Positions 8,265 through 62,731 of a DNA stretch of 64,000 bases are shown piece by piece. The number at the start of each line of letters is the position of its first letter. Within the stretch, counting starts at the first letter, position 1. Made by a program: the position numbers and the translations under genes. This stretch comes from Patescibacteria group bacterium (lineage in GTDB: Bacteria > Patescibacteriota > Minisyncoccia > UBA6257 > GWB1-50-10), in the NCBI GenBank assembly GCA_030018585.1, contig JASEHZ010000001.1, positions 9,484 through 73,483 on the forward strand, given 5' to 3'. The notes beneath the pieces are model-generated. The model was not told where the DNA came from. It did no database searches and saw nothing but the letters and a program-made list of their open reading frames with translations.

Positions 8265-9728
8265 ATGCGAGTTGTTGTCGTGCCTAAAGAAATAAAAGAA
8301 ATTGCCGGTGTTTTAGAAAAAGCCGGTTTTGAAGCGTACTTAGTAGGCGGTTGTGTCCGTGATCTTTTAATTGGTAAAAAGCCGAAAGATTGGGACGTTG
8401 CGACAAATGCTAGGCCAGAAGAAATCCAGAAATTATTTTCCGATTCTGTATACGAGAATCAATTCGGCACAGTTGGCGTAAAAACCGAAAGTAGCGATTC
8501 CACGCTTAAAGTTATTGAAGTGACAACATATCGTATCGAGGGCAAATATACTGATAAGCGTCATCCGGACGAAGTTAAGTTCGCAAAAACCATTGAAGAA
8601 GATTTAGGCCGTAGAGATTTTACTATTAATGCTTTTGCCAAGGATTTGCTAAAAAAAGGAGAAGTTATTGATTTATATGATGGGCAAAAAGATTTGGAAA
8701 ACAAAATTATTAGAACCGTAGGCGATCCCAAGAAACGTTTTTGTGAAGATGCGCTTCGGCTTTTGCGGGCGATCAGATTTGCTTCAGAGCTTGGTTTTGA
8801 GATTGAAAAAAATACATTAGAAGCCATTCAGGAATGCGCTGGTTCTATTGAGGCGATTGCTAAAGAACGGATCCGCGACGAATTTGCAAAATTAATAATG
8901 TCGGATGGGGCAGCTCGTGGCATTATTTTATTGGAAGATGTCGGGCTTTTAAAATATATAATTCCAGAATTACGGGAAGGAATTGGTTGCTCACAAAACA
9001 AGCATCATATCTATACAGTTTTTGATCATAATGTTCGGGCGTTAAATTATGCGGTGGAGAAAAAATATCCGTTTGAAATTCGTTTGGCTTCGCTTTTTCA
9101 TGATATTGCCAAGCCTAAGACAAAAGCCGGCGATGGACCGGATTCGACTTTTTATAATCATGAAATTGTTGGCGCAAAAATAACTTTAAAAATTCTTGAT
9201 CGTTTGCGTTTTTCAAAAGAAATTATAGAAAAAGTAACTCATTTGGTAAGATGTCATTTGTTTTATTACAACGTTGGCGAAGTAACTGAAGCGGGTGTGA
9301 GAAGGTTTTTAAACCGGGTGGGACCGGAAAATGTTCCGGATTTAATAAAAGTGCGGGAAGCCGACAGAATAGGTTCGGGCGTGCCTAAGGCTGTGCCCTA
9401 TAAAATTCGCCATCTGCTTTTTATGATTGAAAAAGTAAAATCTGACCCGATTCATCCCAAAATGCTTGTTTTGCGGGGCGACGATATTATGAAAATTTTA
9501 AATATCCCGGCCGGGCCTAAAATCGGCCAGATTCTTTCAATTCTTTTGGAGGAAGTTCTTGATGACCCGAAAAAGAATAACCGGGAATATTTAGAATTTA
9601 GAGCTAAAGAGCTTAATCTATTTAGCGAAAAAGATTTAATTGCTCAATCAAAAAAAGCTAAAGAAAAGAAAGAGGAATTTGAGGGGGGAATTGAAAATGA
9701 AATGAAAAAGAAATATTATGTCAGGTAG
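8265..9728 (+). CDS. cca: CCA-adding tRNA nucleotidyltransferase (polymerase-beta head + HD domain)
   Basis: GGCVRDLLIGKKPKDWDVAT nucleotidyltransferase motif; HD-domain His/Asp cluster; 487 aa. Confidence 0.85.
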   Translation: MRVVVVPKEIKEIAGVLEKAGFEAYLVGGCVRDLLIGKKPKDWDVATNARPEEIQKLFSDSVYENQFGTVGVKTESSDSTLKVIEVTTYRIEGKYTDKRHPDEVKFAKTIEEDLGRRDFTINAFAKDLLKKGEVIDLYDGQKDLENKIIRTVGDPKKRFCEDALRLLRAIRFASELGFEIEKNTLEAIQECAGSIEAIAKERIRDEFAKLIMSDGAARGIILLEDVGLLKYIIPELREGIGCSQNKHHIYTVFDHNVRALNYAVEKKYPFEIRLASLFHDIAKPKTKAGDGPDSTFYNHEIVGAKITLKILDRLRFSKEIIEKVTHLVRCHLFYYNVGEVTEAGVRRFLNRVGPENVPDLIKVREADRIGSGVPKAVPYKIRHLLFMIEKVKSDPIHPKMLVLRGDDIMKILNIPAGPKIGQILSILLEEVLDDPKKNNREYLEFRAKELNLFSEKDLIAQSKKAKEKKEEFEGGIENEMKKKYYVR

Positions 9729-9770
9729 TAGAAGCTTGGCTTTTTTCAGCATTTCCCGCTAAAAGTAGAT

Positions 9771-9844
9771 CGGGGAGGAGTATGCCGGTAGTACGCACGC
9801 TTCGGGTGCGTGTAGACCGGGTTCGATTCCCGGCTCCCCGACCA
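9771..9844 (+). tRNA. tRNA-Pro (anticodon CGG) with encoded CCA
   Basis: Manual fold: acceptor CGGGGAG/CTCCCCG, anticodon stem CACGC/GCGTG loop TTCGGGT, T-arm CCGGG-TTCGATT-CCCGG, ends ACCA. Confidence 0.7.
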
Positions 9845-9871
9845 GACGAAACTTAAGAAAAACACCGAAAA

Positions 9872-10249
9872 TTATTTTTCAGTGTTTTTATCTTCATCAT
9901 TATTATTTTTCTTTTTGCGGATAAGGTGAGTAGCAACGCTAATTCCGGCAGCAAGTGCAGCAACAGTTCCGCCAACCCACCATTTTTTCTTAGCAAGAAA
10001 TTCTTTGACCCGATTGAATCGTTCATTAAACTTTCCGTTTTCAATTTCTTTTTTAAGCAAAGTTGCTTGGGCGGTTACTGTTTTTTCATCTTCTTCATTC
10101 CAATCGCAGAGTTTTTCGAGAGGTTTAATTACTTCCTCGTCATAATAAGAGCTATTGTAGGCGGCATTGGCCGTTGGTATATCGCATCGGCGTGGTATTT
10201 TTATAGCGCCGATTATTTTTTTTAATTTCGCTCGTTCTTTTTCAGTCAT
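9872..10249 (-). CDS. Hypothetical C-terminally membrane-anchored protein
   Basis: 125-aa ORF with C-terminal hydrophobic helix WWVGGTVAALAAGISVATHLI. Confidence 0.35.
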   Translation of the reverse strand: MTEKERAKLKKIIGAIKIPRRCDIPTANAAYNSSYYDEEVIKPLEKLCDWNEEDEKTVTAQATLLKKEIENGKFNERFNRVKEFLAKKKWWVGGTVAALAAGISVATHLIRKKKNNNDEDKNTEK

Positions 10250-10323
10250 GGCTCATTCTTTAGAATTATTAAAATTAACTTTTCTTATTATAGAATATAT
10301 GGCAGAATAAATAAAGTTTTAAA

Positions 10324-10447
10324 AGGGCCTATGGTTCAGTGGTAGAACGCGGTCCCGCCCATACTTCGTATAGCGGGGTTGCGATTTGTAAATAAAAATC
10401 TTATCATTTTTATACAAATCGGGAACATTCGCACTGTGCCCCGCACC
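10324..10447 (+). ncRNA. Unresolved tRNA-like structured element: tRNA-like acceptor+D-arm, two hairpins, then GCCCCGC-ACCA end
   Basis: GGGCCTATGGTTCAGTGGTAGAAC is a canonical tRNA 5' third but no matching 3' acceptor strand exists; hairpin CCCGCCATAC-TTC-GTATAGCGGG and long hairpin GCGATTTGTAAATAAAAAT...ATTTTTATACAAATCG follow; GCGGGGT pairs with GCCCCGC before ACCA. Confidence 0.3.
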
Positions 10448-10454
10448 AAATTTA

Positions 10455-10525
10455 TGGGGGTATAGTATAGTGGTAATACGCGGCATTCGCATTGCCGAGA
10501 CTCGGGTTCAATTCCCGATACCTCC
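10455..10525 (+). tRNA. tRNA-Ala (anticodon CGC), no encoded CCA
   Basis: Manual fold: acceptor GGGGGTA/TACCTCC (G3:U70 wobble), D-arm GTAT-AGTGGTA-ATAC, anticodon stem CGGCA/TGCCG loop TTCGCAT, T-arm TCGGG-TTCAATT-CCCGA. Confidence 0.7.
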
Positions 10526-10544
10526 ACTATTAAATTTTGGTGCG

Positions 10545-10582
10545 GGGTTGTCGAGACAGGAGTTCAATTCCCGATACCTCCA
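10545..10582 (+). repeat. Decayed duplicate of tRNA-Ala 3' end
   Basis: GTTCAATTCCCGATACCTCCAC at 10505-10526 recurs at 10561-10582; T-stem 5' strand mutated (TCGGG to AGGAG); copy ends ACCA. Confidence 0.55.
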
Positions 10583-10787
10583 CCAAGAGAAATTTTTCGA
10601 AAACATCACCCTTTTTATTTTTAATGGGATAGTATTTTTTTCTGGATGTTATTTAAGGGATGTCCGCTTGTGGTTTGGGGAAATAAACTGCGGATGGAAA
10701 TTGGTGCAATAAATATTTTGGATTTGCTTTGCCGCGCGGCATTACTTTATACGGGACGATCATTCTAGTGATATTTGGTTTTTTGTT

Positions 10788-11477
10788 TTAGAAGATACGG
10801 CGAATCAAATTTCTTATAGAAAGCATTCCATGCCGGAAAACCATTTCGCGCCACAATTTTTTGGGCCGGGTAATATTTTCAAATTTTTTTTCACGGATTG
10901 CTTTGAAAACCGAAGCGATATTTTTCGTTTCCATTTCAATTATGGCGTAATCTTTGTCTAGTCCCCAAAGATCGTGAGTGTCTGAAGAGGCGATAAAAGG
11001 AAGACTATATTTTTGGGCAATTTTTTCACCTTTTTTATTTCTATTAAATTGTTTGGAATAAAACCACGAATGTTCAATTGCATCAAAAAGATCAATATCG
11101 ATTTCAAGTTCGTTTTTTAAAGAATAGTTGCCGTAAAAAAAAGGATGAGGCGCGATAATAAATATTTCCGGATGTTCTTTTTTATATTTTCTTAATTCAG
11201 AAAATGTTTTTATTATTTCAATGTCTTTTTTTGTGTTTAGGATAAGAACGTGGCAATTTTCGATATTAAGTTCGACGCCGGAGATTAAAAGAATGCCGTT
11301 TTTTTTAGCGTATTTTTCGTATTCCTCGATATTAATAGATTTTTTGTGGCAGGTAAGAGCTAAAATATCAAAACCAAGCTCTTTTGCCCCATCAATGCCT
11401 TTTAAAAAAGTATAATTTATACCCTTGTCGTGAGGGTCATCGTTCGTGTGAAAATGCAGATTGGTCTTAAATTTCAT
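10788..11477 (-). CDS. PHP-domain metal-dependent phosphoesterase
   Basis: N-terminal HFHTNDDPHD motif and later His/Asp residues typical of PHP family; 229 aa. Confidence 0.65.
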   Translation of the reverse strand: MKFKTNLHFHTNDDPHDKGINYTFLKGIDGAKELGFDILALTCHKKSINIEEYEKYAKKNGILLISGVELNIENCHVLILNTKKDIEIIKTFSELRKYKKEHPEIFIIAPHPFFYGNYSLKNELEIDIDLFDAIEHSWFYSKQFNRNKKGEKIAQKYSLPFIASSDTHDLWGLDKDYAIIEMETKNIASVFKAIREKKFENITRPKKLWREMVFRHGMLSIRNLIRRIF

Positions 11478-28246: not shown

Positions 28247-28576
28247 AAGGGTATATAAAAATAGTCTGCGTACGCAGACTATTTATTGCCTAATTTAAAA
28301 TAAAAATAAAAAAGCGGACTGAAAAAACATACAAGAATTATTGAAATAACAATATTGATAATGGATAAAAACGGAGTAAAACACCAAGCAATATTTATAA
28401 ACATTCTCTTAATTTTGACAGGCATTACAAATCCTTTTAATGAGTAATAAAGAACTTGATTTAGCTTATTATAAGCAACTAAAAATTGCAATCTTCCATT
28501 CTTTTGTAGGGGGTGAGGAATAAAAAATTATCCCGCCATTCCATGGAATGACGGGATTGATTTTTACTTAAATCGA

Positions 28577-60589: not shown

Positions 60590-62731
60590 ATGAAAAAAAC
60601 ACTAAAATTCATATTAATTTTTTCACTGGTTTTGGGATGGGTTTTTTCTGGCTGGCCAAAGATTTGGCAAAATCCGAGAATTCCGCCGGAAATTCAAATA
60701 GCACAAGCAGCAACACTTGAATATGTTGGAGGGGCATCTGGCACGGGAACCGGAGCAACATATAGCGTTTCTCTTACCGGCCTTACAGGTGGCATTGGAA
60801 GTTCTGCGGCGGCAGGTGACCTTGTCATCGTTGTTACCGGATGGGCGAGTGCAGCCGATGGTAATCCTGGCGTTACCACACCCACTGGCTATACCGAAGT
60901 GTATGACCTTTACAAAAGTGACACTAGAGATGTTAATATGAGTGTCAACTGGAAGATTATGGGAGGAACTCCGGATACTTCTGTTACGGTAAGCGGCCAC
61001 AACAACGCGGCAAACGGAGGCGCGACTGTAGTTCATGTCTGGCGCGGAGTTGACTCGACAACGCCGATGGACGTTACTCCTCCTACTGGTGTCACCGCTG
61101 CCAACGCCTCGTCGCCAGATAGTCCGAGCATCACGCCAGTTACGAGCGGCGCGTATGTTTTATCCGTTGGTATGGGAACAGGGGATACCACACCACTGAC
61201 TAAAACTGCGCCGACTGGCTATGGCAATGCGCTATCTGTTGCGGGCAACGGCTCCACCATGTCGATTATCGCGAATATCGCGTCTAAGGTATGGAGCGGC
61301 AGCGGAGCGGAAGACCCTGCGGCATGGACCGGCGGCGAAACAAGCACTTCAGACTCGTGGGCCGCCGGCACTTTAGCAATACGGCCAGCGCCGTCTTTTA
61401 CCCAATCTGCTTACAGATTTTTTAATAATATAGATTCAACTGATGTTGGTTCAGTTTTGGCGAATCAAGATACGTCGGCAACGCTAAGTTCGAGTGGTGC
61501 TGAATTTCGTTTGCGTATGCTTTTACATATCGGCACAAGTCGGCTTGATGCTTCCGGCCAGCAATTCAAACTCCAGTTCGCCCAGATGTCCGGCACCTGT
61601 GATACGGTTTTTTCCGGCGAGTCATATGCTGATGTTACTGCGGCAACAGTTATTGCTTATAACAATAATACTACGCCGGCTGATGGCGATAATTTAACTG
61701 CCAATGCCAATGATCCGATTCACGGCGCAGATACTATTGTTAATCAGGATTATGAAGAATTAAATAATTTCACCAATTCTGTTGCGGCAATTCCTTCTGG
61801 TCAAGACGGTAAGTGGGATTTTTCTTTAAAGGACAATGGTGCTTCAGCAGAAACTGCTTATTGTTTTCGTGCAGTTTTATCGGACGGTACCTTATTTACT
61901 GCAGGTGGCGGTAGTTATAGCGTGGTTCCGGAAATTACTACGGCTTCGGCTAATTCAGCGCCAACAGTTTCTAATGTTGTTTTAAATAATTTGAACCCCA
62001 TTACTCTTACGCCGAACACCACAACTGCTGTTTTAGTTGTGGCGTCAACAACCGATTCTAACAACAATATTAGTTATGCTACTGGAACGATTTATCGGAC
62101 TGGCATTGGAGCAACCTGCGCGGCTGATAATTTAAATTGTTATCAGTTAGCAAGTTCAAGCTGCAGTTTTTCGGGCAGTACGAGTACTGTTACTTGTTCG
62201 GCTAATATCTGGTATTTTGCGCAAGCAACTGATTCTTCCTCTTCTTTTTCCGGCGACACCTGGTCAGGCAAGATTGCGGTTACTGACAGCGGCGGGCTTT
62301 CCGGCAGTTCTTCCACGGCGTCGCAGGTTGAGTTAAATACACTTCTTGCTATTGATGTTACGTCGGGAACAATTGATTACGGGACTTTAGTGCCGAATAC
62401 AAATACGGGTTCGACAAATCAAACTTCAACCGTAAAAAATGTTGGCAATTCTTCAACTACGCTTCAGCTTTCTGCTTCGCAGACATTAACTTCCGGTTCA
62501 AATTCAATTACCACAAGTTCTCAGCATTACGCAACTTCATCGTTTACTTTTGGCGGCAGTGAAGCGCAATTGAGCGATACGCCGACGACTGTAACAGGAT
62601 TTTCATTAACATCGCCCACAAGCACGAACGCGGTCTCAAGCATTGTTTATTGGGGCTTGAATGTCCCGGCTAGTAAGCCAACTGGCACTTATAGCGGGAT
62701 TAATGTTTTTACAGCGGTTTTTGTTCAGTAA
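60590..62731 (+). CDS. Giant Ser/Thr/Gly-rich surface protein (paralog A)
   Basis: 713 aa, N-terminal TM; C-terminal ~170 aa nearly identical to 62785 ORF. Confidence 0.45.
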   Translation: MKKTLKFILIFSLVLGWVFSGWPKIWQNPRIPPEIQIAQAATLEYVGGASGTGTGATYSVSLTGLTGGIGSSAAAGDLVIVVTGWASAADGNPGVTTPTGYTEVYDLYKSDTRDVNMSVNWKIMGGTPDTSVTVSGHNNAANGGATVVHVWRGVDSTTPMDVTPPTGVTAANASSPDSPSITPVTSGAYVLSVGMGTGDTTPLTKTAPTGYGNALSVAGNGSTMSIIANIASKVWSGSGAEDPAAWTGGETSTSDSWAAGTLAIRPAPSFTQSAYRFFNNIDSTDVGSVLANQDTSATLSSSGAEFRLRMLLHIGTSRLDASGQQFKLQFAQMSGTCDTVFSGESYADVTAATVIAYNNNTTPADGDNLTANANDPIHGADTIVNQDYEELNNFTNSVAAIPSGQDGKWDFSLKDNGASAETAYCFRAVLSDGTLFTAGGGSYSVVPEITTASANSAPTVSNVVLNNLNPITLTPNTTTAVLVVASTTDSNNNISYATGTIYRTGIGATCAADNLNCYQLASSSCSFSGSTSTVTCSANIWYFAQATDSSSSFSGDTWSGKIAVTDSGGLSGSSSTASQVELNTLLAIDVTSGTIDYGTLVPNTNTGSTNQTSTVKNVGNSSTTLQLSASQTLTSGSNSITTSSQHYATSSFTFGGSEAQLSDTPTTVTGFSLTSPTSTNAVSSIVYWGLNVPASKPTGTYSGINVFTAVFVQ

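Follow-up and report, generated by a model that had tools for sequence, protein, structure and literature searches.

Introduction

Genes for structural RNAs are broken up in several described ways. In the disruption model for tRNA-Thr of Caldiarchaeum, a 5´ fragment of a transfer RNA (tRNA) gene stands upstream of an intact gene (PMC3293823). Group I introns of tRNA genes have been described in Patescibacteria, in a paper that reports no nests of tRNA-Ala(CGC) (PMC13011429). Among ribosomal RNA (rRNA) genes, a survey of insertions in the candidate phyla radiation (CPR) found none of 100 bp or more in 5S genes (PMC11270868), a study of 5S expansion segments set aside sequences with internal duplication (PMC7812874), and a survey of CPR ribosomes leaves nested 5S genes unmentioned. 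Here we describe a locus in a 64,000-nucleotide stretch of DNA from a Patescibacteria group bacterium (contig JASEHZ010000001.1; the whole stretch is called the window), where an intact tRNA-Ala(CGC) gene lies inside the two interrupted halves of another, an arrangement that we call a nest.

This gene-inside-its-own-gene architecture is recurrent in the tRNA-Ala and 5S rRNA genes of Patescibacteria and apparently undescribed. The reading that we favor, and consider fairly probable, is that of a replacement cassette spread by recombination, whose flanking helix acts in precursor processing and around which the outer gene persists as a decaying relic.

Results

Layout of the nested tRNA-Ala(CGC) locus

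On its sequence, the locus is read as a nested gene, in which the ancestral tRNA-Ala(CGC) is still whole and colinear and is interrupted at two places. An earlier sequence-only reading had seen an orphan tRNA 5´ half and a decayed 3´ copy, and had offered a split or processed tRNA, a tRNA-like regulatory RNA, or remnants of tRNA-targeted integration as explanations. The last of these comes closest, but the half and the copy form one colinear gene, which that reading had missed.

All parts of the locus lie on the forward strand. The outer gene opens with tRNA positions 1-29, comprising the acceptor 5´ strand, the D arm and the first 3 nt of the anticodon stem (10325-10352). Between positions 29 and 30 sits element B, a 73-nt insert of two hairpins (10353-10425), followed by outer positions 30-37, the 8-mer CATTCGCA, which includes the anticodon CGC and is flanked by both insertions (10426-10433). 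The second insertion is a cassette of 114 nt, mostly tRNA itself, between positions 37 and 38 (10434-10547). It consists of the linker CTGTG and a 5´ clamp arm, made up of the GC clamp CCCCGCAC at 10439-10446, CAAATTTA and a T (10434-10455; inverted repeat I2), the inner tRNA-Ala(CGC) found by ARAGORN and Rfam (10456-10527), and the spacer TAT with the 3´ clamp arm TAAATTTTGGTGCGGGG, whose GC clamp GTGCGGGG lies at 10540-10547 (10528-10547; repeat I2 and the fold). The outer gene then resumes with positions 38-76, namely the anticodon-stem 3´ strand, variable loop, T arm, acceptor 3´ strand TACCTCC, discriminator A and an encoded CCA (10548-10585). About 29 nt 5´ of the outer tRNA start, a consensus scan places a promoter-like site on the same strand, TTAAAA and TAGAAT separated by a 16-nt spacer (10269-10296), presumably the ancestral tRNA-Ala promoter, which would drive the whole nest.

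Repeats within the locus support this layout. The acceptor and D-arm sequence recognized in the sequence-only reading, GGGCCTATGGTTCAGTGGTAGAAC, is present at 10325-10348, 1 nt above the coordinate then given, and is unique in the window, with 0 chance matches expected. The 22-mer GTTCAATTCCCGATACCTCCAC, which had been seen to recur with a mutated T stem, occurs exactly twice, at 10506-10527 and, again 1 nt higher than stated, at 10562-10583 (0 expected). The full direct repeat is 36 nt long at 89% identity (10492-10527 and 10548-10583, from the repeat finder) and begins at tRNA position 38, with the CCA encoded at 10583-10585, at the end of its second copy. The gap between the inner tRNA and this 3´ repeat is only 20 nt. 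The outer 5´ half shares 75% identity over 28 nt with that of the inner gene (repeat D2), and CATTCGCACTG (10426-10436) repeats the inner anticodon loop CATTCGCATTG (direct repeat D5). Folded as one RNA, the 262-nt stretch 10325-10586 has a minimum free energy (MFE) of -97.4 kcal/mol, compared with -72.7 +/- 4.7 for shuffles (z = -5.2). The MFE fold holds the two hairpins of B, termed P1 and P2, together with the clamp helix, and most of the inner cloverleaf (anticodon and T arms) is enclosed.

Inner and outer copies

The inner tRNA-Ala(CGC) is presumed to be the functional gene. It scores 68.8 bits with RF00005 of Rfam (gathering score 29) over model positions 1-71, ARAGORN calls it tRNA-Ala(cgc), every stem is paired, the alanine identity pair G3:U70 can be read from the sequence, and CCA is not encoded.

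When 10325-10352, 10426-10433 and 10548-10585 are joined in silico, ARAGORN also calls the 74-nt product tRNA-Ala(cgc). The D stem (4/4) and the anticodon stem (5/5) of this outer gene are fully paired, the acceptor GGGCCTA/TACCTCC has 5 of 7 pairs, and the T stem AGGAG/CCCGA has 2 of 5. Because of the latter two stems, and despite the ARAGORN call, we read the outer gene as a decaying relic, which would keep homology without an intact fold. The sequence-only reading had found no complementary 3´ acceptor strand nearby, and this holds: matches to a TAGGCCC-type strand (TAGGCCC followed by CCA) occur across the window at chance frequency, none of them linked to the locus.

The final 22 nt of the outer 3´ part before the CCA are identical to the inner gene. 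At a homologous cassette (L223; loci outside the window carry L numbers), the outer 3´ half is of another tRNA type and its T stem is intact. This comparison suggests gene conversion in the lineage of the window, in which the inner gene overwrote the outer 3´ end as far as a boundary in the T loop. In other nests, the outer copies bear additional hairpin insertions in the D and T loops.

Could the outer gene still work? B and the cassette would then be removed as RNA, by an endonuclease and a ligase or by RNase III-type excision, or the outer tRNA or 5S rRNA would mature or function in several pieces. Such an interrupted gene would agree with the colinearity of all outer segments, with insertions that sit in loops as self-contained hairpins, with the sense-strand G-U bias of the clamp helix (below), and with insertion positions 29/30, 37/38 and the T loop, which coincide with positions of archaeal tRNA introns. 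Also in its favor, CPR rRNA genes are rich in excised insertions (PMC11270868). The unpaired positions in the acceptor and T stems of the window are difficult to reconcile with a working outer gene, as are the presence of B in both orientations and the outer copies that are truncated or lack a half in L013, L210 and L245. At the present locus, manual inspection revealed no bulge-helix-bulge at either junction, and there is no group I signal. We regard a functional interrupted gene as highly improbable, and the functional split tRNA that the sequence-only reading had entertained is not upheld in the window.

Known kinds of intron were considered individually. No group I or group II intron signatures were found at the junctions. 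Rfam gives no hit to RF00028 (Intron_gpI) at E <= 10 in 9600-10900, by the same method that detects 23S introns in L219 and L210. Group I splice sites have a U before the 5´ site and a G at the 3´ end; B follows G29 and ends in A, and the cassette, which does end in G, follows A37. For an archaeal split tRNA or bulge-helix-bulge intron, manual pairing of the junctions yielded no motif of two 3-nt bulges and 4 bp. Among the open reading frames (ORFs) scanned, which span 75-24042 of the 64-kb window, none matches a splicing endonuclease (EndA) or RNA ligase family.

Transfer-messenger RNA (tmRNA) was also rejected. Permuted or two-piece tmRNA (RF04321 or RF00023) scores 23.2 and 12.3 bits against a gathering score of 47, and it is the T arm and acceptor that produce the score; a tag frame is missing, and ARAGORN reports no tmRNA. 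A mini tmRNA or alanine minihelix, GGGGTTG...TACCTCCACCA at 10544-10585, is likewise below threshold and lacks a tag frame. Its pairing exists only because the inner-type acceptor of the window resembles the clamp, and other nests are without it.

The clamp helix

The cassette junctions are bridged by a continuous helix of ~16 bp, in which CCCCGCACCAAATTTA (10439-10454) pairs with TAAATTTTGGTGCGGGG (10531-10547). The inverted repeat around an intact tRNA-Ala(CGC) described in the sequence-only reading is recovered by the repeat finder at 15 nt and 93% complementarity. Two further proposals of that reading did not survive comparison with relatives. The tRNA-like ACCA end of GCCCCGCACCA is not conserved, relatives having CCCCGCGCTCA, CCCCGTTCATAA and similar sequences in its place, and the CCA-ending minihelix GCGGGGT/GCCCCGC-ACCA is not a conserved pairing, since GCGGGG pairs within P1 and CCCCGC with the 3´ arm.

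Across the collection of nests described below, the GC clamp CCCCGCAC/GTGCGGGG is conserved at 16 of 21 tRNA-type and 11 of 14 5S-type loci. In both classes, the 8-mer is directly followed by C-YKG-CCCCG(C/T)AC, the start of the cassette, which closes with G(T/A)GCGGGG, and in all ten parsed tRNA-type nests the outer gene resumes with TTG(C/T) directly after ...CGGGG. The arm sequences vary by locus, and the cognate pairing ranks first or nearly first of 33 in the majority of true nests. The mean arm duplex is -39.6 kcal/mol for cognate arms, compared with -30.5 for arms of different loci. The sense-strand duplex is more stable than the antisense duplex in 20 of 25 nests, and G-U accounts for 58 of 575 pairs, which points to selection on the transcript.

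Relatives and the empty site

A gene for a CCA-adding enzyme (8265-9728, Pfam) lies ~600 bp upstream of the nest. Relatives of this enzyme were found only in Patescibacteria metagenome-assembled genomes labelled Paceibacteria, Brennerbacteria or Jorgensenbacteria, the best with 83% protein identity, and through it we collected 80 syntenic relative loci (L001 onward). The order tRNA-Lys, tRNA-Arg, cca, tRNA-Pro(CGG), tRNA-Ala(CGC) is kept in most of these 80.

A plain tRNA-Ala(CGC) is present in L002, GGGCCTATGGTTCAGTGGTAGAACACGGCATTCGCATTGCCGGGACGGCGGTTCAATTCCGCCTAGGTCCACCA. The first 24-28 nt of the outer 5´ part are identical to the intact tRNA-Ala(CGC) of L002, L011, L016, L029, L038 and L041, and the identity to the L002 tRNA marks the outer 5´ half as the 5´ part of the normal tRNA-Ala(CGC) of the lineage. 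The flank 5´ of 10325 is ~93% identical to that of a plain tRNA-Ala, without insert, in the closest relative, L001, which therefore serves as the empty site, having its tRNA-Ala at the same position. Relatives such as L002 do have the intact tRNA with the exact 5´ half, as would be the case for a plain pseudogene, but the 3´ half in the window has been displaced by insertions and not deleted.

Partial tRNA copies next to an intact gene are what could remain if phages or integrative elements had used the anticodon and T loops of tRNA-Ala as attachment (att) sites and had later been deleted. Williams reportedly named these two loops, in 2002, as the usual crossover sites of integrases. The direct repeat of the tRNA 3´ part from position 38 (36 nt, 89%) fits this explanation, relatives carry a second element, E2, flanked by a 3´-end duplicate that starts in the T loop, and the T stems of the outer 3´ halves of the window and L058 are mismatched as if at a T-loop junction. 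However, integration leaves a 3´ repeat only, with no upstream 5´ relic, and merely 20 nt separate the inner tRNA from its repeat. The flanks of the inner gene are complementary, with arms matched to their own partner at each locus, there is no duplicated core at both junctions, searches of phage, plasmid and viral collections gave no hits, and 5S rRNA genes have the same layout. Nor was any integrase, transposase, reverse transcriptase or homing endonuclease found among the ORFs scanned, within ~10 kb of the nest. We judge such scars to be distinctly unlikely, and the 20-nt gap, the 5´ relic and the lack of an integrase within that distance contradict the classical att scar that the sequence-only reading had proposed.

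Recurrence in tRNA-Ala and 5S rRNA genes

A single pattern scan of metagenome contigs gave 45 loci, which split into a tRNA type and a 5S type (L042 and L209 are the same contig). In Patescibacteria, the distinct loci with nest architecture number at least 21 for tRNA-Ala and 14 for 5S rRNA. At the 21 tRNA-type loci, B follows tRNA-Ala positions 27-29 and precedes CATTCGCA; a co-oriented intact tRNA-Ala(CGC) lies no more than 140 nt away at 19 of them, and one in the opposite orientation at none.

The 5S rRNA genes are split by the same insert family at a similar 8-mer, CATTCCGA. The left flank at the 14 distinct 5S-type loci is the 5´ part of a 5S gene (...ACCTCTTCC), followed by B and then CATTCCGA, which is 5S loop C, and a 5S core motif is found 60-97 nt downstream at 12 of the 14. 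Ten 5S-type loci were scanned with Rfam, and all have an intact 5S gene at the nest, nine scoring 52-81 bits and L211 scoring 44.9 bits (threshold 38). B is closely followed by the intact gene in eight of these ten; L210 and L245 have it in tandem, upstream of the B-bearing relic. The nested order is outer 5´ part, B, CATTCCGA, clamp arm, intact inner 5S, clamp arm and outer 3´ part, with the outer gene picking up again at ACAGAGAAG, the exact point of interruption. Eight of the scanned loci are preceded by the end of a 23S rRNA gene, and nested 5S genes downstream of 23S on metagenome contigs are found in L206 (6485-6710, reverse strand), L202 (1100-1333), L211 (365-630), L238 (1243-1468), L219, L230, L233 and L213. 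The outer 5S copies often have further small hairpin insertions.

Incomplete arrangements occur as well. B is present without a cassette in L212 and L210 and the cassette without B in L078, an empty clamp hairpin occupies the cassette site in L245, and one relic half is missing in L013. Other nests are deeper, with up to 3-4 levels (L042 and L227, L201 being similar). In L042, two outer tRNA-Ala copies surround one inner copy with the 3´ halves in mirrored order, and the acceptor stems match level by level (GGGCCTA/TGGGTCC, GGGCCTG/CGGGTCC and GGGCCCA/TGGGTCC).

Several other features were seen at or near these genes. The 23S rRNA genes upstream of nested or tandem-relic 5S genes contain Rfam group I introns in L219 (10209-10586, reverse strand) and L210 (8808-9256, reverse strand). 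In L238, a segment comprising the 3´ clamp arm and the outer 5S 3´ part, with a CCTGCCCGCC hairpin insert, is tandemly repeated at 1470-1800; the copies are almost identical, which suggests a recent event within that genome. The T loops of relic tRNAs carry palindromic inserts, GGTTCGAC...GTCGAACC, which are inverted duplications of adjacent T-loop sequence (L042 6940-6975, L225, L203, L212 and L019 7075-7105), and the short palindromes TCCGCCARCTGGCGGA and CCTGCCTGCCGGCAGGCAGG recur in P2 tips, variable loops and outer 5S copies. At 3714-3830 of L060, downstream of a tRNA-Arg(TCG), come first a terminator-like palindrome and then a partial, inverted copy of the T arm and 3´ end of that tRNA; jointly they make up a long inverted repeat, which overlaps the 3´ end of the tRNA.

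E2, a second conserved element of ~100 nt (GGGAARGGGGTCGGGRAAAC..GTTTYCCCGTGGCGGA..AACCGC.GGGTT..), is absent from the window. It is located downstream of complete tRNAs (Ala, Pro and others), with an inverted T-arm copy on its left and, on its right, a direct repeat of its tRNA from the T loop through the 3´ end. There are ~19 copies in the 80 syntenic loci and two in L201; positions include L026 (6625-6750 and 3876), L057 (6818), L031 (6501), L019 (6947), L012 (3870) and L051 (6210), among others. The E2 hairpins covary by eye, and Rfam gave no hit in the L026 region.

Element B

Element B consists of a T, the hairpin P1 (CCCGC...GCGGGG, 10353-10378), TTG, the hairpin P2 (10382-10421) and GGGAA. 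The sequence-only reading had described two hairpins here, correctly, and put the length of one at about 45 nt, where P2 has ~40. B is 85-90% identical in L011, L019, L042 and L058, genomes whose CCA-adding enzymes share only 65-70% identity with that of the window. A covariance model, R1, built from eight copies, scores the B of the window at 85.8 bits and finds no other copy in the 64 kb; in ~1 Mb of DNA from relatives, it finds B only within relic tRNA-Ala or 5S genes. Across 33 distinct copies, 90.7% of cells are paired, compared with 77.3% in shuffles, and both sides have changed at 13 of the 16 pairs of P2. The invariance of P1 is uninformative, since P1 was fixed by the search pattern.

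No described family accounts for B. Rfam searches of 9600-10900 at E <= 10 returned nothing that matches it, the only hits being to tRNA and, below threshold and driven by the tRNA, to tmRNA, permuted tmRNA and the Tymo tRNA-like structure. Searches of phage and plasmid collections with B and the arm by blastn found no match, and two scans of viral contigs gave chance pattern matches only, with R1 at 24.5 bits or less or without a hit. We considered a miniature inverted-repeat transposable element (MITE), a REPIN (a pair of repetitive extragenic palindromes) or a palindrome derived from the insertion sequences IS200/IS605, for which many dispersed copies are expected; the 64-kb window has a single copy. 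An outward promoter in P2 (TTGCGA, 17-nt spacer, TATCAT) was discarded as well, other B copies not conserving the sequence. As candidate motifs, B and E2 could each represent an undescribed structured RNA or recombination site.

The conservation of B and of the surroundings of the 8-mer in both tRNA and 5S contexts raises another question, namely whether the structured leader is itself a regulator or decoy. B, the 8-mer and the clamp would then display CAUUCGCA (or CAUUCCGA) in a pseudo-anticodon hairpin (GGGAACA/TGTGCCC) that titrates or senses a factor, with a modification enzyme, a ribotoxin or a processing nuclease acting on tRNA-Ala(CGC) and 5S loop C as candidates. A 7-bp stem with one mismatch can indeed be read from the sequence as closing the 7-nt loop UUCGCAC, and B shows a mild excess of G-U over A-C (12 versus 5). 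Yet this hairpin competes with the much stronger clamp helix and is absent from the MFE fold, supporting covariation was not found, the close relatives L001 and L002 manage without it, and we know of no partner factor. A decoy role seems to us very unlikely.

Palindromic hairpins of the form ATCCCG...CGGGAT are enriched elsewhere in the window, with 5 pattern matches versus 0.5 expected (1698-1726, 28530-28557 and 62664-62700). Those at 1698-1726 and 28530-28557 lie in AT-rich DNA that is apparently intergenic and resemble bidirectional terminators, and the ATCCCG...CGGGAT stem resembles P1 of B.

Spread and origin

Three comparisons bear on how nests spread. L222 and L236 share a near-identical tract of ~330 nt, from the outer D-arm 3´ strand through B and the cassette to the outer T arm, between flanks that cannot be aligned. 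The window and L223 have the P1 of B, the arms CCCCGCACCAAATTTA/AAATTTTGGTGCGGGG and a GGGGG-type inner tRNA in common, but differ in the type of their outer genes. This scaffold recurs in L011 and L203, with an inner tRNA whose 5´ half is exactly that of the outer copy in the window.

We propose that the target was an essential structural-RNA gene, probably present once, whose loop received a replacement cassette, and that the event was survived because the cassette brought a working copy. The module would then spread between genomes by recombination, with the conserved gene halves as homology arms, and repeated entry into the newest inner copy would give Russian-doll nests. In operation, a single precursor of ~260 nt would be transcribed from the old promoter, and the arms would zip into the ~16-bp helix and keep the inner cloverleaf apart from the outer half-sequences, which are nearly identical to it. 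The inner tRNA would be released by RNase P and 3´ trimming and would receive its CCA from the enzyme encoded ~600 bp upstream, and the outer pieces would be by-products without a role. The part of the clamp in precursor processing is inferred. More tentatively, and with odds that we put somewhat short of even, the cassettes could form a hitherto unrecognized, non-autonomous homing class in Patescibacteria that invades essential structural-RNA genes at a shared loop 8-mer (CATTCGCA or CATTCCGA) and avoids killing its host by carrying a replacement copy, with B and the CCCCGCAC/GTGCGGGG clamp as recognition or processing modules served by a putative loop-specific nuclease or recombinase.

Several points weigh against the favored replacement cassette. 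No inserting enzyme, target-site duplication or autonomous copy was found. The inner and outer 5S parts are nearly identical within one genome in L238 and L206, a pattern that fits intragenomic duplication or gene conversion as well as import. B may be functional, being conserved far better than expected of a neutral insert in a dead gene. In addition, the metagenome B loci were found by a pattern that required CATTC after B, so that its apparent site specificity is partly built in. Reversed copies of B lie inside the T loops of relic tRNA 3´ halves in L042 (7016-7085, reverse strand) and L060 (3889-3962, reverse strand), showing that B is confined neither to the CATTC site nor to a single orientation, and B is also present at another site in L219. 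The site specificity of B is less certain than that of the cassette.

The enzymology of insertion was also considered. With a single 8-mer between B and the cassette and no junction duplications, the order 5´ half, B, 8-mer, arm, gene, arm, 3´ half fits neither tyrosine-recombinase products (attP/attB) nor an 8-bp target-site duplication.

The near-identical 5S copies lead to the alternative that the nests arose by duplication of the gene into itself. A break or replication stall at an exposed loop (tRNA anticodon loop or 5S loop C) would be mended by template switching onto the sister chromosome, from which leader, gene and trailer are copied into the break; the arms would be the processing stem of the gene itself, and B and the small palindromes by-products of repair at hairpin tips. 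The inner gene is always the same as the outer one, tRNA-Ala in tRNA-Ala and 5S in 5S, and in L238 and L206 their 5S 3´ parts are almost identical, with the 3´ arm and outer 3´ part repeated in tandem in L238. Hairpin tips are where the insertions concentrate (the P2 tip, 5S loop C and the D, anticodon and T loops), and several of them duplicate the adjacent target in inverted form, as do GGTTCGAC..GTCGAACC in T loops and those 5´ arms in which the inner tRNA 3´ end is mirrored; together these make break and repair at hairpin tips a serious rival. However, the outer 5´ half equals the tRNA of relatives and has only 75% identity to the inner tRNA of the window (GGGGGTA type), and the 5´ arm is unlike the DNA that precedes the outer gene. 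A common GC clamp and B recur across tRNA and 5S nests in many genomes, and the tract in L222 and L236 shows mosaic sharing between unrelated flanks. On this evidence we consider self-duplication unlikely, and return to the replacement cassette as our preferred reading.

Gene neighborhood

By Pfam, the neighbors of the nest are housekeeping genes only, for PheT, RecG, an EamA-family transporter, the CCA-adding enzyme, a PHP-domain protein, a mechanosensitive-channel-like protein, RecR, DnaB, CysRS and CorA; ribosomal protein L21 was named by eye from its ORF translation. A look-up of contigs encoding the same PHP-domain protein returned no record.

The tRNA-Pro(CGG) upstream of the nest (9771-9844) is delimited differently by the two programs, ARAGORN giving 9774-9844, with the anticodon at position 30, and Rfam 9771-9841, a 3-nt offset. 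Its Rfam score of 47.1 bits is the lowest among the five tRNAs of the window, and the same 69-nt form is present in L019, L020 and L040.

Discussion

If our interpretation is correct, a cassette that carries a copy of its target gene can split bacterial tRNA and 5S genes and replace them from within, in a manner distinct from self-splicing introns and att sites. This would provide a bacterial, sequence-level case that bears on the origin of split and intron-containing tRNA genes, and could explain the turnover of tRNA-Ala types among related Patescibacteria. The nests and their modules (B, and E2 in relatives) have gone unnoticed because tRNA and rRNA finders report only the inner copy.

The split, multi-intron and permuted tRNAs of archaea (Nanoarchaeum, Thermoproteales and Caldivirga) resemble the nest in having breaks at 37/38 and at non-canonical positions and in their complementary flanks. 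The nest differs in that it is bacterial, shows no bulge-helix-bulge, has a defective outer gene and holds a whole tRNA in the gap. Group I introns in bacterial tRNA anticodon loops, including those of Patescibacteria (PMC13011429), share with it the anticodon-loop insertion, the phylum and a spread by homing or recombination with co-conversion of flanking exons. In contrast to these introns, the nest is without a ribozyme core, its inserts are far smaller (B 73 nt, cassette 114 nt), and rescue is by a second gene copy and not by splicing.

The intervening sequences of rRNA and the expansion segments of 5S rRNA (PMC7812874, PMC11270868) are likewise self-contained hairpin modules in loops of structural RNAs, including 5S loop C, with a patchy distribution and sharing by recombination with pseudogene copies. 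They sit in functional RNA, whereas those of the nest sit in a displaced outer copy around an intact one. Nested transposons and twintrons show the same re-insertion into the newest copy, with the oldest element outermost; there the nested item is a parasite, and here it is the host's own essential RNA gene.

The closest concept is the disruption of tRNA genes by integrative elements, Caldiarchaeum included, and literature searches turned up nothing closer. In phage att sites and those of integrative and conjugative elements (ICEs), in elements of the type of cis-mobilizable elements (CIMEs) and in Caldiarchaeum, as in the nest, DNA enters a tRNA loop, supplied tRNA sequence keeps the gene functional, and partial copies remain. 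Unlike these elements, the nest insert is only ~110 nt long, with complementary arms and with no recombinase gene or att core duplication seen. It brings a complete tRNA, so that both 5´ and 3´ relics are left behind, and 5S genes are affected as well as tRNA genes.

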